A stretch of 30,439 bases of DNA, from the sequence record SRR22947727_488; one strand, given 5' to 3'. This document shows positions 12,293 through 24,480 of this stretch, one piece after another. Position 1 is the first letter of the stretch. Each line of letters opens with the position of its first letter. Under the pieces are notes generated by a model. That model made no database searches. It saw only the letters and a list, made by a program, of their open reading frames with translations, and was not told where the DNA came from. The translations under genes were made by a program, and so were the position numbers.

Positions 12293-12784
12293 TTATAAAT
12301 CAGGTATTATTACTTCAATATTAGGCGCATATGGTGTTGAGGCTCTTTTAACTTTTACACCTTTCATATCCCAAAAAATTTCTGAGAATTGGTTGCATAA
12401 CTCAACAAGTTTTTCACCATCTTCTCTATGTAAGTCTTGCTTGCAAGCAGATCCAGCTATCATTATTTTATGTGCTAGCTCATGAACTTCTGGATGTTTT
12501 TCTAAGTGAGCGCCTTTCATGAAGTCGCCCCATATAACGCGCACTTCGTGTTTAACAAGTTCAGCTTGTTTTTCTTTTTCTGCAGTATTTCTACTAACTT
12601 GCATGGCGAACGATGTCTGACTTAAGTCTCTGTCTTTAAGACTTAATAAAATATCGATCTGTCTTAAAGTTGAAACAGCGTGATACATAACTGTTCTTGC
12701 ATCATATATTCCACAGGGTATGTCACAATGAGCAGAAACAGCGTCTAAAGAATTATTAAATCCTGAAATTAAATTATTAAACAT
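12293..12784 (-). CDS. sodN: Nickel superoxide dismutase precursor
   Basis: 18-aa leader followed by the nickel hook HCDIPCGIYD; KE..AE.VK.EVRVIWGD, CKQ, FSEIFW motifs. Confidence 0.97.
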   Translation of the reverse strand: MFNNLISGFNNSLDAVSAHCDIPCGIYDARTVMYHAVSTLRQIDILLSLKDRDLSQTSFAMQVSRNTAEKEKQAELVKHEVRVIWGDFMKGAHLEKHPEVHELAHKIMIAGSACKQDLHREDGEKLVELCNQFSEIFWDMKGVKVKRASTPYAPNIEVIIPDL

Positions 12785-19012: not shown

Positions 19013-21757
19013 GTGAATGATGAAACTAAAATTCCTTTTGATAATAGTCCAATTAATCCAGAGCATGGCATATCTCCAATAACGATCGAAGAGGAAATGA
19101 AGCGTTCCTATCTAGATTATGCAATGTCAGTAATTGTTTCTCGAGCAATACCGGATGTTAGAGATGGTTTAAAGCCAGTTCACAGAAGAATATTATACTC
19201 AATGCATGAAAACGGCTTTACTCGAGAAAAAGCATACAAGAAATCTGCTCGTGTTGTTGGTGATGTAATCGGTAAATATCATCCACACGGTGATAGTGCA
19301 GTTTATGATGCTCTAGTACGTCTTGCGCAGGACTTCTCTATGCGACTCCCTTTGCTTGATGGACAAGGAAATTTTGGCTCCATAGACGGTGACCCTCCAG
19401 CTGCTATGCGTTATACTGAGGTTAGAATGGATAAACCAGCTGCTTCACTGTTAGCTGATATTGAAAAAAACACTGTTAACTTTCAAGAAAATTACGATTC
19501 TTCTGAAAATGAACCAGTAGTTCTTCCGTCGCGATTTCCTAATATTTTAGTGAATGGAGCCGGTGGGATTGCTGTTGGTATGGCTACTAATATTCCTCCT
19601 CATAATTTGGGTGAAGTAATTGATGCTACGCTTGCAATCATGTTGGATGAAAATTTATCTGATGAGGACCTTTTGAATATCATACCGGGCCCTGATTTTC
19701 CAACCGGTGCACTAATTATGGGTCATAGCGGTGCTCGCTCTGGTGTACTTACAGGTAAGGGATCGGTTACTATGAGAGCTGTTGCTGATGTAGAGGAAAT
19801 TCGTAAAGATAGGTATGCTATAATAGTCACGGAATTGCCTTATCAAGTGAATAAGGCAAACATGATCAAAAAGATAGCAACTCTTGTTAATGAGAAAAGA
19901 ATAGAAGGTATTTCCGCTGTACGTGATGAATCAGACCGGGTAGGCATGAGGGTGGTAATTGAGCTTAAACGTGATGCTGTTGCTGATGTTGTATTAAATC
20001 AATTGTTTAAATATTCGGCTATGCAACAAAATTTTAGTTCTAATATGTTAGCCTTAAATGGAGGCAAGCCCGAACAAATGAATGTTCGGACTATGCTTAA
20101 GGCTTTTTTAGGTTTCCGAGAGGAAATAATTGCTAGGCGTTCTAAGTTTGATTTAAGCAAAGCAAGAGATCGAGCTCATATTCTTGTTGGTCTCGCAACG
20201 GCTGTAGCTAATATTGATGAAATAATTAAAATAATTAGAGGGTCAAAAAACCCTAAAGATGCACGCTATAATTTACTTTCAAAAACTTGGGATGCTCAAT
20301 CAATGGGTTCTCTTATTGAATTAATTGCTGATCCGAGGTCTTTGCTTTTAAGTGATGGAACTATACAATTAACAGAAGAGCAAGCTAAAGCCATATTGGA
20401 GTTAAGACTTTTAAAATTAACAGCTTTGGGCATGGATGAAATAACCGATGAGGCCAAGAAGCTTTCTATAAAGATAATAGACTTACTGGATATTTTAAGA
20501 TCTCGTGAAAGAGTTCAGTCTATTATTCGTGAAGAGCTTACAGAAGTAAAAGAAAAATTCGCAACTCCACGCCGCTCAATATTTACAGCAGGGGGTTTGG
20601 ACTTTGATGACGAAGACCTGATTCCAATTGAGGAAATGGTCGTTACTGTAACAGCGGGTGGATATGTAAAAAGAACGCCCTTAGATACCTACCGAGCACA
20701 AAGACGCGGGGGTAAGGGGCGATCAGGAATGTCTATGAAAGATGAGGATTATGTTACTACTGTATTTGTTGCAACTACTCATACACCAGTTTTATTTTTT
20801 AGTTCGACTGGAATGTCATATAAGTTAAAAGTATGGAAATTACCATTAGGAGGAGCTGCAACAAGAGGTAAGGCGCTAATAAATTTATTACCACTTGACC
20901 AAAATGAAACAATCAACTCAATAATGTCACTTCCTGAAGATGAAGAAAATTGGAAAAATCTTGATATTATGTTTGCTGCGCGCTCTGGAGGCGTCAGAAG
21001 AAATTCTCTAGCTGATTTCACACGAGTTAACAGAAATGGTAAAATTGCTATGAAACCAGATGAAGGCGATGGTATTGTTGATGTAAGATTGTGCACTGAA
21101 GATGATGATATACTTTTAACCACTGCTATGGGTAAAGCTCTTAGGTGTAGAGTGACTGATGTTAGGAGGTTTGTAGGACGAACATCAAGTGGTGTTAGGG
21201 GAATAAAGTTAGCAGCGGGTGATGAAGTAATATCTATGGCTGTATTGAGACACGTTGATGTAATGACAGAAGAGTCTCGTGCATATATGAAGCATGCTAA
21301 TGCTATGCGTCGAGCATTAGGTGAAGGTGATGATGATTCTGACGAATCTGAAGTAGAAAGCAGTTTGTCAGATGAGCGTATTGGTGTACTCGGTGCAAAT
21401 GAGCAGTTTTTACTTACATTAGCAAGCGATGGGTTTGGTAAAAGAAGTTCTAGTTATGATTATCGTTGTATGAACCGTGGTGGACAGGGGGTAACAGCTC
21501 AAGAATTAGCTAGAAAAGTTGGAGATGACGCTAAGTTAGTTAGAAGCTTTACCATTGAAGATGAAAATCAGCTCATGATAGTTACTGATGGCGGTCAACT
21601 TATCAGATGTCCAGTTAAAAATATTCGTATAGTTAGCCGTACATCAAGGGGGGTTACTGTTATCAGGGTTAAGGATGATGAAAAAGTAGTAAGCGTAGAG
21701 CGTATTGAAGATAATGATGAATCAGAAGAGAATAACGAAGTTAATACAATTACTTAA
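19013..21757 (+). CDS. gyrA: DNA gyrase subunit A
   Basis: [48 protein letters not shown] catalytic Tyr, GyrA-box QRRGGKG (distinguishes it from ParC); GTG 19013 preferred, TTG 18998 possible. Confidence 0.99.
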
Positions 21758-21766
21758 AGTATTAAC

Positions 21767-22936
21767 TTAACTCCATTTTTCTCTCAAAAACTTTTCTTTT
21801 TTGGGATCTATATTAACATTATTAATATCATTATTCGCCCATTCCATTACTCTTTTATCCATTATCGCAAACCAAAGAGGTGGAATAAAAGCTAACGCGA
21901 AGCACCCACCATAGCCGGTTGGAAGAGAGGGAACATTTTCATAGTCCCTAAGTACTTGATATGCGCGCATCGGGTAAGCGTGATGGTCTGAGTGTCTTTG
22001 GAGGTGAAATGATAGAAGATTCGAATATGTATGATTTGTGTTCCAGCTATGTTTAGGTTGACAGCGCTCATATTTACCATTCGGTAATTTTTTACGCATT
22101 AATCCGTAATGTTCTATATAATTTGCCTGCGTTAGTGTTAACCAAGCTAAAAAATGATGTGGAATAAGAAATAATAAGATTGTAGGGTCAAATATGTATG
22201 CAAAAACAAATAAGGATACAGTGGTAACTGCGTAAACTTGTAAAAGATCATTTTCTAAAGACCAGAAATTTTTTCCTGAATTTTTTAATCTTTTTTTCTC
22301 AAAATCTATACCTCTTTTGAATGTTCCAGAAAGCTCACGGATTAAAAATGCATAAAAACTTTCTCCCATTCTCGAACTAGCAGGGTCCTCTGGTGTTGCC
22401 ACCCAAGTATGGTGGCCTTTGTTATGCTCTATATTGAAGTGACCGTATCCCATTATCATGTTACCAATTTTAGCTGAAAACCTATCAAGTTTATTTGATT
22501 TGTGGCCTAATTCGTGCGTCATAACCATTACTCCACCGCTATTAGCGCCTACACCAATAATTAATGCCAGGACAGACCACCACGGCAACTGTTGAGTTCC
22601 TACAAATGCAACAAAGCTGATATAGAGTATAATTGAAACTAGTATTAAAGAGTGAACAATGAACCTGTAGTAATTATCTGCCATCATAGCATTAACAACT
22701 TCTTCCGGAGGATTATGCTCATCTTCACCTATTATAAAGTCCATGATAGGCGGGAAAATATAGAAATATAACATCGGTATCAGTGTAAAAATTGGATTTT
22801 TGTCAAACGTAAAAAACAAATATATTGAAAGCCATGACATTAAAGGGGATACCAAAATTACCCAATATAGATGGCGCTTTTTGTCAGTGTAGATGATTTC
22901 ACTGCCATGTTCTGAAAATCCTGTGAAAGTCTTCAT
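21767..22936 (-). CDS. alkB: Alkane 1-monooxygenase (integral-membrane diiron hydroxylase)
   Basis: All AlkB motifs present: HELGH, EHNKGHH, ATPEDPASSR, NYIEHYGL, LQRHSDHHA; N-terminal YTDKKRHLY and TM helices. Confidence 0.96.
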   Translation of the reverse strand: MKTFTGFSEHGSEIIYTDKKRHLYWVILVSPLMSWLSIYLFFTFDKNPIFTLIPMLYFYIFPPIMDFIIGEDEHNPPEEVVNAMMADNYYRFIVHSLILVSIILYISFVAFVGTQQLPWWSVLALIIGVGANSGGVMVMTHELGHKSNKLDRFSAKIGNMIMGYGHFNIEHNKGHHTWVATPEDPASSRMGESFYAFLIRELSGTFKRGIDFEKKRLKNSGKNFWSLENDLLQVYAVTTVSLFVFAYIFDPTILLFLIPHHFLAWLTLTQANYIEHYGLMRKKLPNGKYERCQPKHSWNTNHTYSNLLSFHLQRHSDHHAYPMRAYQVLRDYENVPSLPTGYGGCFALAFIPPLWFAIMDKRVMEWANNDINNVNIDPKKEKFLREKWS

Positions 22937-23310
22937 GGTTGTTCCTCATATTTTTCTGTAAACGGAACGCAAAGGTCTCGCATAGGGCTCAGTGCTGATA
23001 AAATAAATTCCAATCTTTCAACTATATATGGACCATTAATATCATGAAATACTTGTCGCCCAATTTTTTTTGAGGTTGTTATTCCTGCTTTTTCTAGGTT
23101 TAGTAGATGCCTAGAAATAACAGAACGGTCTTGAGATAAATCTTTTGCTACAGTCGTGACATCGCAAACGCCAGTAGAAACTAATTTTTTTATAATTTGT
23201 ACGCGTGTGGGATCGGTTAACGCTTTTAAAAAAACTGTATCCAGTACTTCAATTATTGTATTTGAAATTGACTTTATTTCAAGTTCTTGAGAATTCTTAT
23301 TTATTATCAT
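22933..23310 (-). CDS. ArsR/SmtB-family transcriptional regulator
   Basis: FLKALTDPTRVQIIKKL...SQDRSVISRHL..LEKAGI....GRQV winged HTH; ATG 23310 preferred because the upstream ATG at 23328 lies inside the operator repeat; ATGA overlap with alkB. Confidence 0.9.
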   Translation of the reverse strand: MIINKNSQELEIKSISNTIIEVLDTVFLKALTDPTRVQIIKKLVSTGVCDVTTVAKDLSQDRSVISRHLLNLEKAGITTSKKIGRQVFHDINGPYIVERLEFILSALSPMRDLCVPFTEKYEEQP

Positions 23311-23340
23311 ATGTGTATGTATGCACACATATGCACATAT
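23308..23340. promoter_or_regulatory. Inverted/tandem repeat operator, probable ArsR autoregulatory site
   Basis: CATATGTGT-N8-ACACATATG (23308-23333) plus the tandem 10-mer ATGCACACAT/ATGCACATAT (23321-23340). Confidence 0.7.
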
Positions 23341-23352
23341 TTCAATTATTTT

Positions 23353-24480
23353 TTAATCTAATGCCTCAGTTTTATATATTTGAATATTTAAACCTCCATT
23401 CGAAACATTTAAATTAGAGGAAACAAAAGGTAAATTAGTGGATTGTGCTAATCCGTTATCAGAGGTAACCATACCAACCCTCCATCCAAAAAATTCATTT
23501 CTCATTTTTTCACCAAATGTTCTGTATAATGAGAAGAGATCTTTTTTCTTACCTATCCTGGCGCCATATGGTGGATTTACTATAACCAAGCCTTCAGAAC
23601 CATCTGGTCTTTTTAATTTTTCAATATTTTGAGTATGAAAATTACAGATATCATCTAGACCAGCTCGTTTGGAGTTTTGATTAGAGTATTCTATTACATT
23701 GTGATTTCTATCAAAGCCCATAAACGAAAATGCTGAAGGTTTATTTTGCCATTTTTTCTTTAAATTACTAAACAATTTTTCATCGTAACTAATGAGGTTT
23801 TGAAAATTAAATTTCCTATTTCTTCCTGGCATTAGATTGCGTGATATTCCTGCGGCCTCTATGACAAATGTACCAGAGCCACACATTGGGTCCACCACAG
23901 GTTCGTTTCCTGAATATCCACAAAAATTCAATGCTAAAGATGCAATATTTTCTCGAATTGGAGCTTTACCCATTGCTAATTTATAGCCGCGTTTATACAG
24001 CCCGTCGCCAGAAGTATCGATAGATATAATAACATTATTATCGATTATTCTTATTTTCAATACAATATCGGCGGACGAAATCGATTGTGCCACTGTGTTA
24101 CCAAGTTCTTCAGAAATAGCTCTTTCTATTCTTTCTACAGCTGCTCCAGCATGGTATATTTTGTTTTTTCTATTTGTAACTACTTCTGCTTTCACACTCA
24201 TTCCCTGAGGTATTGTGTTACGCCATGGAAACCTTCTTGCACGTTTATCAAGTTGAGCTAAATGAAATGCACGAAATTCACCAATACGAGCTAATACTTT
24301 TGTTGCCCCCCTTAAATATAAGTTCATTTTCCAAACATCCATCCAGTCACCCGTTATCGATACTCCTCCTACATGTAAATTTGATTCACTATAACCAAAT
24401 TTTCTGACCTCCTCATGGAGTAAATACTCCAACCCAAGCTGAGTAGTTATAAATATTTCAAATTTGTCTGTTTGTTTCAT
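23353..24480 (-). CDS. THUMP-domain class I SAM-dependent RNA methyltransferase (stand-alone RlmL-like)
   Basis: GLE..L..E, SIDTSG..LYKRGYK....KAPIRENIA, DPMCGSGTFVIEAA, VNPPYG.RIG. Confidence 0.92.
   Translation of the reverse strand: MKQTDKFEIFITTQLGLEYLLHEEVRKFGYSESNLHVGGVSITGDWMDVWKMNLYLRGATKVLARIGEFRAFHLAQLDKRARRFPWRNTIPQGMSVKAEVVTNRKNKIYHAGAAVERIERAISEELGNTVAQSISSADIVLKIRIIDNNVIISIDTSGDGLYKRGYKLAMGKAPIRENIASLALNFCGYSGNEPVVDPMCGSGTFVIEAAGISRNLMPGRNRKFNFQNLISYDEKLFSNLKKKWQNKPSAFSFMGFDRNHNVIEYSNQNSKRAGLDDICNFHTQNIEKLKRPDGSEGLVIVNPPYGARIGKKKDLFSLYRTFGEKMRNEFFGWRVGMVTSDNGLAQSTNLPFVSSNLNVSNGGLNIQIYKTEALD

Follow-up and report, generated by a model that had tools for sequence, protein, structure and literature searches.

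How is a bacterial alkB gene controlled, and from where does its product receive electrons, when it is accompanied by a single small regulator gene and lies in housekeeping surroundings? This question is raised by sequence record SRR22947727_488 (30,439 nucleotides; hereafter the window, which denotes the whole stretch of DNA that was analysed), in which a gene for a regulator of the ArsR/SmtB family directly precedes alkB (Table 1). AlkB is the main enzyme of medium- and long-chain alkane oxidation, and to our knowledge the known alkB regulators belong to protein families other than ArsR. A preliminary description of the window, made from its letters alone, had proposed an ArsR-type control of alkane hydroxylation in a streamlined genome and had called the module atypical for its lack of rubredoxin. 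It had also raised a possible part of the module in the turnover of biogenic marine hydrocarbons, with the C15/C17 alkanes of cyanobacteria in mind. By following this pair through related genomes, we came to regard an autorepressed, translationally coupled ArsR-like/alkB operon, inherited as a unit in the family Robiginitomaculaceae (stalked bacteria of marine habitats), as the probable explanation of the locus.

The enzyme belongs to the Pfam family FA_desaturase (PF00487, E 7.9e-31), has no extra domains, and matches the Fontimonas AlkB structures PDB 8sbb (E 3.6e-110, 372 bits, residues 5-384) and 8f6t (E 4e-95). Its histidine boxes, described earlier as intact, are indeed all present, as the translation holds the four signature motifs in the form of HELGHK, EHNKGHH, NYIEHYG and LQRHSDHHA. 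Judged by these features, AlkB is an intact enzyme of the alkane-hydroxylase type, with alkanes as its putative substrate. The regulator matches PF01022 (HTH_5/arsR) at residues 39-83 with 34.3 bits, the cut-off being 22; Pfam found in it HTH_5 only, along with a sub-threshold HVO_A0114 match, and no DNA-binding domain of the LuxR/MalT, AraC, TetR or GntR type. An alternative open reading frame (ORF) starting at GTG 23328 (22933-23328) would read through the candidate operator described below. We take ATG 23310 as the real start, giving a protein of 125 amino acids, because the extra N-terminus of longer homologues reflects conserved DNA and not conserved peptide; 203 homologues of the regulator were present in the protein collection.

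An AlphaFold2 model of the regulator (mean predicted local distance difference test score 81.5, with a low-confidence tail after helix 5) follows the ArsR/SmtB order of helices (H) and hairpin strands (E), namely H40-52, H57-63, H68-80, E84-89, E92-97 and H99-113. The best Foldseek match of this model (E 1.8e-05, root-mean-square deviation 1.2 A over 81 columns, 28% identity) was PDB 6j05, an As(III)-responsive ArsR repressor, which we take to be the Acidithiobacillus ferrooxidans protein. The next structural matches were CadC, NolR, CzrA, HlyU, SrnR and SqrR, and nearly all of the top 50 are ArsR/SmtB proteins, with ranks 25, 30 and 47 held by larger winged-helix regulators that are not identified as ArsR/SmtB.

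Relatives were collected with a 20-sequence regulator alignment searched against one genome per species. This gave 356 relatives, the best 80 loci of which were kept, and adjacency was scored by tblastn with the window AlkB in a fetched flank of up to 4 kb. In 43 of the 80 loci the ArsR gene is followed immediately by alkB, which was not found within the flank in the remaining 37, so the adjacency, for which a neighbourhood analysis had been suggested, is not unique to this genome. The paired loci carry the names Hellea, Algimonas, Litorimonas and Robiginitomaculum, or belong to unclassified metagenome-assembled genomes (MAGs) of Caulobacterales, Hyphomonadaceae or Alphaproteobacteria. Two cultured type strains are among them, Hellea balneolensis DSM 19091 (L023) and Robiginitomaculum antarcticum DSM 21748 (L043). 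In a quick IQ-TREE analysis of all 81 rows, they form together with the window one side of a branch with an approximate likelihood-ratio (SH-aLRT) support of 100, and the nearest tree neighbours of this alkB-linked clade, which is placed among ArsR proteins with a C-terminal Cys-Cys-Pro, are ArsR proteins of other Caulobacterales. The ArsR-alkB pair is a family trait of Robiginitomaculaceae, found in genomes of 2.6-4 Mb, and the earlier idea of something peculiar to a streamlined genome does not hold. All four AlkB motifs (HExxHK, EHxxGHH, LQRHxDHH and NYxEHYG) are kept in 40 of the 44 alkB-linked loci, window included; among the four loci without the full set, two (L012 and L019) are cut by contig ends and one (L018) has an interrupted alkB.

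The genes around the pair were annotated in 12 diverse loci. They include gyrA in the Hellea group and a PabB-like gene in a Robiginitomaculum group, and elsewhere vary among P450, Rieske, PhyH-like, DUF3179, protein kinase, HtrA-like and further genes, while the pair itself stays together; no recurring redox partner or other alk gene was found beside it in these loci. We also took an even sample of the family, consisting of 60 relatives and the assembly of the present genome (G000: 1.83 Mb, 92 contigs, 97% complete), in which an AlkB match of E 1e-20 or better counted as AlkB possession. By this measure 24 of 61 genomes hold AlkB, 14 of them (G000 included) at identities of at least 52% and 10 at 35-39%. 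In the first group, which comprises 13 relatives besides G000, ArsR lies directly upstream in 11. The other two have lost the regulator in different ways: G015 (L100:1334-1486) retains a 50-codon remnant, in which the N-terminus runs in frame into the C-terminal tail and the whole DNA-binding domain is deleted, and keeps a TAATG junction, an alkB with all four motifs and the left operator half only; G059 (L101) has no regulator gene and an alkB with all four motifs. In the second AlkB class (35-39% identity; L104-L113, in G011, G027, G047, G034, G045, G004, G051, G060, G030 and G026) the ArsR gene is absent in all 10 loci. TetR_N and MscS genes each occur in three of the four second-class loci scanned (L113 has MscS only and L109 TetR only), and a TonB-receptor fragment was observed in two of the scanned loci.

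Within the pair, the overlap of the ArsR stop with the alkB start noted in the preliminary description can be read directly in the sequence. Across the 44 loci the junction is a 4-nucleotide overlap, (A/G)TGA, in 28 and a 1-nucleotide overlap, TAATG, in 11, with the remaining loci showing abutting codons (1), a 2-nucleotide spacer (3) or a 4-nucleotide spacer (1). The ArsR stop thus overlaps the alkB start in 39 of 44 loci, and any spacer is at most 4 nucleotides in all 44. In most relatives a GGAG/GGGG-like site is found ~9 nucleotides upstream of the alkB start, within the last codons of the regulator, and the conserved regulator C-terminus G-[ED]-A-A can be explained by the location of the GGAG-like site in those codons. 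These features support the view that ArsR and alkB are a conserved unit, with translational coupling as the predicted link between them.

The upstream repeat to which the preliminary description had referred proved to be a conserved inverted repeat. An element with the consensus cTTGCAATATGTGCATaTGTGTGCACATATAC lies directly upstream of the regulator ATG in every locus that has sequence there, and it contains the 9-6-9 inverted repeat ATATGTGCA-N6-TGCACATAT in all 43 loci with upstream sequence (the 44 loci minus L020, which has none). Scored on the 14 bases of ATGTGCA-N6-TGCACAT, the operator core has no mismatch in 17 loci, one in 19, two in four (window included) and three in three, which amounts to at most two mismatches in 40 of 43 loci and at most three in all 43. 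The distance from the core to the ATG, measured with a fixed-codon yardstick, is 8 nucleotides in 34 of the 43 loci and 5-29 nucleotides in the other nine; for six loci at 5 or 17 nucleotides, the difference fits a start one codon later or three codons earlier. A -35-like hexamer abuts the repeat, reading TTGCAA or TTGACA in relatives and TTGAAA in the window, and no Shine-Dalgarno sequence was found before the regulator ATG. In genome-wide scans of five relatives, we found 0-2 sites per genome at no more than one mismatch; in G058 and G037 the site found, with 0 and 1 mismatches respectively, is that of the alkB locus. No second operator target recurred in the genomes scanned, and there was no sign of a wider regulon in them. 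The repeat is a candidate site to which the regulator may bind.

A second perfect palindrome, ATATGCA-N6-TGCATAT, was observed in three copies in G000 (C28:29346-29365, C23:26552-26571 and C39:55998-56017; L116, L115 and L117). Of these, one is flanked by a divergent acyl-CoA dehydrogenase gene and an Fe-alcohol dehydrogenase/thioesterase pair, while the other two precede a nitronate-monooxygenase-like and a saccharopine-dehydrogenase-like gene, respectively. G037 has at least 9 further copies, and many sites are also present in G054, G042 and G016. We did not assign this palindrome to the alkB-linked ArsR, as three exact sites occur in the same-genus genome G016, in which no alkB was found; it appears to be the target of a different regulator, possibly of lipid catabolism.

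In the mechanism that we propose, the regulator, presumably a dimer as in other ArsR/SmtB proteins, would bind the conserved 9-6-9 repeat, which fills the space from the -35-like hexamer to the start codon, and transcription of both the regulator gene and alkB would be repressed, with the promoter buried within the operator. A signal would then free the regulator from the DNA, ribosomes ending the regulator gene would restart on alkB via the ATGA junction, and both proteins would rise until the repressor resets the system. The mRNA would probably be leaderless or nearly so, because a Shine-Dalgarno sequence is lacking and the repeat ends 6-8 nucleotides before the ATG. We infer repression rather than activation because the site overlaps the promoter region and because two relatives keep alkB after loss of the regulator. 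Some ArsR-family proteins do activate, among them HlyU, which is present among the structural matches, and the regulator could likewise activate alkB, or could govern other genes and merely travel with alkB. We give these possibilities a slight chance: a repeat that follows the -35-like hexamer and precedes the start codon is in a repressor position, alkB is intact in both relatives that lack the regulator, the overlapping stop and start codons persist in 39 of 44 loci despite changing flanks, and no second strong operator copy recurs across the scanned genomes.

The nature of the signal was approached through the cysteines of the regulator. A single C-terminal Cys (Cys120 in the window) stands in a C-x-P-[FY] motif in all 44 alkB-linked loci, and the helix-3 position corresponding to Cys55, which is aligned with the second Cys of the CVC motif in helix 3 of a CadC-like chain, is Cys in 35, Ser in seven and Ala in two. 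No recognised metal or metalloid site (helix-3 CXC, helix-5 His/Asp/Glu or C-terminal Cys cluster) was found in the alkB-linked regulators of the 44 loci. A C-terminal Cys-Cys-Pro is present in nearly all of the 37 more distant relatives, and some of them have additional cysteines. Among 41 neighbouring proteins of these distant relatives that were scanned, we found nine S-adenosylmethionine methyltransferases, an ArsP-type permease, two flavin monooxygenases, two glutathione S-transferases (GSTs), two MMPL transporters, two hydrolases, a TauD-like dioxygenase, three FA_hydroxylase proteins and a glyoxalase-fold protein. The QDRSVISRHL stretch, put forward earlier as a motif by which to trace the subfamily, does form part of the recognition helix (residues 68-80); as an alkB marker it fails, being common to relatives that are next to methyltransferase, ArsP, flavin monooxygenase, GST and further genes and not next to alkB. 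From this pattern the regulator lineage looks like a former metalloid sensor that has lost its canonical site. As a separate observation, the three FA_hydroxylase-family genes, which belong to another family of membrane di-iron histidine-motif enzymes, adjoin distant ArsR relatives in Kangiella, a gammaproteobacterial MAG and Kordiimonas (L063:3146-3877, L083:1962-2693 and L084:4182-5249).

Could the regulator still be a metalloid sensor, responding to arsenite or methylarsenite, with AlkB taking part in an arsenic-related response? Its clade sits among Cys-Cys-Pro ArsR proteins beside methyltransferase, ArsP-type permease, flavin monooxygenase, GST and glyoxalase-fold genes, its best structural match is 6j05, and Cys55 occupies the CadC-like CVC position. 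With 6j05 it shares a sensor cysteine in the C-terminal tail after helix 5 and the design of a small autoregulated repressor (autoregulation being what we propose here), from which it differs in keeping one C-terminal Cys and in having alkB as the partner gene instead of arsenic resistance. Trivalent arsenicals need two or three thiols, only one Cys of the vicinal pair is left in all 44 loci, Cys55 is missing in nine, and no ars genes adjoin the pair, which together make a surviving metalloid sensor very unlikely. A more specific version starts from the fact that algae contain arsenolipids: the regulator would be a re-tooled organoarsenical sensor and would respond to arsenic-containing algal hydrocarbons, or to products of their breakdown, by turning on AlkB, which would serve as the entry enzyme for arsenolipid degradation in seaweed-associated Robiginitomaculaceae. 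We regard this version as far-fetched.

For the autorepressed operon, the inducing change may occur at the invariant Cys120 (C-x-P-F), with Cys55 where present, through a pathway-derived electrophile or oxidant; this is a tentative suggestion, which we would not put at even chances, and non-covalent binding of an alkane-derived lipid as the signal appears about as likely. A two-cysteine persulfide switch of the SqrR/BigR type, suggested by the spacing of Cys55 and Cys120, was rejected as a general mechanism because Cys55 is the CVC position, is absent in nine of 44 loci, and the BigR model scores 20.8 bits against a cut-off of 155.

Whether the enzyme acts on alkanes was considered from its sequence and surroundings. 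Passages of PMC10110569 tie chain length to FtAlkB Trp62 (GPo1 Trp55), with Trp corresponding to C5-C12 and a small hydrophobic residue to C12 and longer. In the 8sbb alignment, Phe58 of the window aligns with FtAlkB Trp62, and is neither the Trp of medium-chain AlkBs nor a small residue as in long-chain ones; the 44 orthologues have Phe (25), Ile (16), Val (2) or Met (1) there. The pattern is compatible with longer alkanes and proves nothing. Instead of serving growth on alkanes, this AlkB-like enzyme might oxidise some other hydrophobic compound, for example a lipid, a metabolite of algae or a component of the membrane, with the regulator sensing redox or thiol stress and not hydrocarbons. 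The absence of the classical Trp from all 44 loci, of other alk genes beside the pair (in the 12 annotated loci and the window) and of rubredoxin, the housekeeping surroundings and the one invariant regulator cysteine would all suit such a role. We consider it rather unlikely in view of the near-full-length 372-bit match to a solved alkane monooxygenase, the four AlkB motifs, NYxEHYG included, in 40 of 44 loci, and the Ile and Val residues at the Trp62 position, which are of the long-chain-alkane type according to the same passages of PMC10110569.

With regard to the electron donor, the claim that no rubredoxin, reductase, AlkL or fused redox domain is encoded in the window was borne out by Pfam scans of its ORFs (23 further ORFs and three neighbours), among which no rubredoxin, reductase, AlkL-like, or alcohol or aldehyde dehydrogenase gene was found. 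The genome search for rubredoxin and ferredoxin proposed in the preliminary description was carried out as well. Rubredoxin (PF00301) had 0 matches in G000, with the control positive in 7 of 14 named genomes and the reductase not searched. In the family sample it occurs in three of 61 genomes (G007, G038 and G055), none of which holds AlkB, and in none of the 24 AlkB holders. Across a class-wide sample of 400 other alphaproteobacterial genomes (at least 90% complete; AlkB-like defined as E 1e-40 or better), there were 20 AlkB-like holders at 28-45% identity, the weaker matches possibly not all being alkane hydroxylases; rubredoxin was present in four of the 20, and in one of these it lies 27 nucleotides from alkB. 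Absence of rubredoxin is the rule among AlkB-like holders in this class and not peculiar to this genome, and the label atypical has to be withdrawn.

Passages of PMC4021335 and PMC8918992 report that ferredoxin and reductase can substitute for rubredoxin and reductase in vitro, and describe an active ferredoxin-reductase-ferredoxin-AlkB fusion. G000 has two P450s and five genes with a Fer2 domain, three of which encode free-standing ferredoxins of ~105 amino acids. One of these three is encoded within an island of lipid- or steroid-like catabolic genes on contig 7 (L136, G000:C7:60000-77000), and its orthologues (at least 56% identity) occur in eight of 60 relatives, all of them AlkB holders (six ArsR-linked and two of the TetR class), and in 0 of 37 genomes without AlkB. 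This association of the contig-7 ferredoxin with AlkB is a lead and not a result. The donor of AlkB is most likely a carrier other than rubredoxin, namely a small 2Fe-2S ferredoxin with a flavin reductase encoded elsewhere. The ferredoxin of contig 8 was uninformative as a marker, since its best matches in relatives are a ubiquitous housekeeping-type ferredoxin (~50% identity, 60 of 61 genomes). In addition to the 2Fe-2S ferredoxin, the contig-7 island was seen to carry a P450, a KshA-like Rieske oxygenase, a TetR gene, an enoyl-CoA hydratase, CoA-transferases, a ChsH2-like protein, a thiolase, an acyl-CoA synthetase and an alkyl-sulfatase-like protein.

Several results weigh against the autorepressed operon or against single steps of it. 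The regulator narrowly misses the NCBIfam model NF033788 (metalloregulator ArsR/SmtB; 53.6 versus 55 bits), and the tree on which its clade is based came from a quick search with 128 columns, which are few for 81 rows (two of them identical). The operator of the window is among the weaker copies (two mismatches, right arm TGCATACAT), and a scan for consensus sigma-70 promoters found no promoter at the operator and six sites against a shuffle mean of 9.9; the consensus promoter and terminator scan as a whole gave nothing above shuffles. Since Cys55 is replaced by Ser or Ala in nine of 44 loci, a Cys55-Cys120 switch cannot be general. The contig-7-type ferredoxin is absent in 15 of 23 AlkB-holding relatives, and its association with AlkB may only mark the lipid-catabolic island because the relatives are not independent. 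For transcription, the metatranscriptome runs X14 and X15 (one study) cover 30 of 30 window bins, and record 12 of X15 (22485-23726) extends from alkB across the regulator gene into the end of the gene for the methyltransferase; both runs also gave contigs of 22-67 kb at even depth, which makes DNA carry-over possible. The oligo-dT runs X16 and X17 (one sample) contributed short pieces only, at a depth of 2.5-7.

How does this unit compare with known alkB systems? AlkS of the GPo1 system is an activator of the LuxR/MalT type. The GPo1 genes alkBFGHJKL/alkST (Pseudomonas putida, OCT plasmid), as described in passages of PMC8918992, share with the present locus the enzyme family, the histidine motifs, an integral-membrane di-iron hydroxylase and a dedicated alkB transcription factor. 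GPo1 comprises AlkS, the rubredoxin AlkG, the reductase AlkT, clustered downstream enzymes and AlkL, whereas here a 125-amino-acid ArsR-type regulator is coupled to alkB, and, unlike in GPo1, there is no rubredoxin in the genome and there are no pathway genes nearby. TetR-type alkB regulators also include a small local regulator beside alkB, as in AlkX of M. tuberculosis, to which the title of PMC9430723 assigns the regulation of a conserved alkane hydroxylase system; AlkX and the TetR genes by the second AlkB class of Robiginitomaculaceae have another fold and belong to another family than ArsR. The AlkBs fused to ferredoxin and reductase in Limnobacter, Leptospira and Polaromonas (passages of PMC4021335 and PMC8918992) offer a precedent for activity without rubredoxin, with the carriers fused to the hydroxylase, whereas here AlkB stands alone (389 amino acids) and any ferredoxin would be encoded elsewhere.

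The suspicion that ArsR-type control of alkB is undescribed is so far supported, as no paper describing such a regulator was found among titles, abstract beginnings and text passages of the literature, with subscription journals and supplements outside this scope. In the passages of two papers, ArsR is mentioned in a gene table only (PMC9430723) or as differentially expressed genes only (PMC12472514). By title or abstract beginning, Hellea together with alkB returned one unrelated review only, and the genus names of the family with alkane or hydrocarbon returned nothing on the topic. The pair is apparently an undescribed ArsR-type control unit for alkB. If true, autorepression by a translationally coupled ArsR-type regulator with a well-delimited operator would add a novel and very compact type of control to those known for alkB. 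The unit, ~1.6 kb in all, could become a biosensor or expression module once its inducer is identified. The lineage would also be an example of a metalloid sensor re-used for a hydrocarbon enzyme. Furthermore, our counts suggest that most alphaproteobacterial AlkB-like holders are without rubredoxin, which turns the physiological donor into a directly testable question and bears on estimates of how far marine bacteria, among them common epibionts of seaweed, contribute to turning over biogenic hydrocarbons.

Table 1 Features of the ArsR-alkB locus in the window (positions of the 30,439-nucleotide stretch).
Feature	Position	Strand	Basis and remarks
alkB, membrane di-iron alkane 1-monooxygenase homologue, 389 amino acids	21767..22936	minus	ORF, PF00487, PDB 8sbb match; gene 2 of the proposed operon
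ArsR/SmtB-family winged-helix regulator, 125 amino acids from ATG 23310	22933..23310	minus	PF01022, predicted fold, start by alignment
ATGA junction, ArsR stop TGA and alkB start ATG sharing 4 bases	22933..22936	minus	plus strand TCAT
GAGGA, putative Shine-Dalgarno-like site for alkB in the last ArsR codons	22943..22947	minus	sequence
Candidate operator, imperfect 9-6-9 inverted repeat ATATGTGCA-TATGTG-TGCATACAT	23317..23340	minus	ends 6 nucleotides before the ArsR ATG
TTGAAA, putative -35-like hexamer abutting the candidate operator	23340..23345	minus	aligned upstream regions

The position of the pair between gyrA and an RNA methyltransferase gene was correctly given in the preliminary description: the flanking genes are gyrA, which is convergent, and an RlmL-like methyltransferase gene, and the order methyltransferase-ArsR-alkB-gyrA is identical in the three closest relatives. 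Families recognised among the scanned window ORFs were CTP synthase, ScpAB, TatC, SecDF, Ni-SOD, UvrA, SSB, GyrA, the RlmL-like methyltransferase, SulP, Ppx, FtsJ and IMPDH, and the remainder are housekeeping genes or have no family match. An ArsR search in G000 came back empty, which is an artefact of an assembly gap (window 22319-23366), as G000 breaks at window positions 22318 and 23367 and is therefore without the ArsR gene and the N-terminal half of alkB. Both break points are spanned by contigs of another public run (records 9 and 12 of X15). We consider the window continuous and not chimeric because these contigs bridge the breaks and because the three closest relatives keep the gene order.

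Some smaller observations concern the surroundings of the locus. The convergent stop codons of gyrA and alkB are separated by a gap of 9 nucleotides (window 21755-21769), in which no terminator-like hairpin was found. The window also contains, at positions 12293-12784, a gene for a nickel superoxide dismutase (Sod_Ni, E 1.1e-36), beside an unannotated ORF of 97 amino acids. The same break places (22318 and 23367) are found in G000 and in contigs of independent runs, with several short variant contigs at 22289-22514 and 23311-23377. Variant letters occur within the operator (23337) and at the stop codon of the methyltransferase gene (23354), so that strains may differ from one another around the operator and within alkB.

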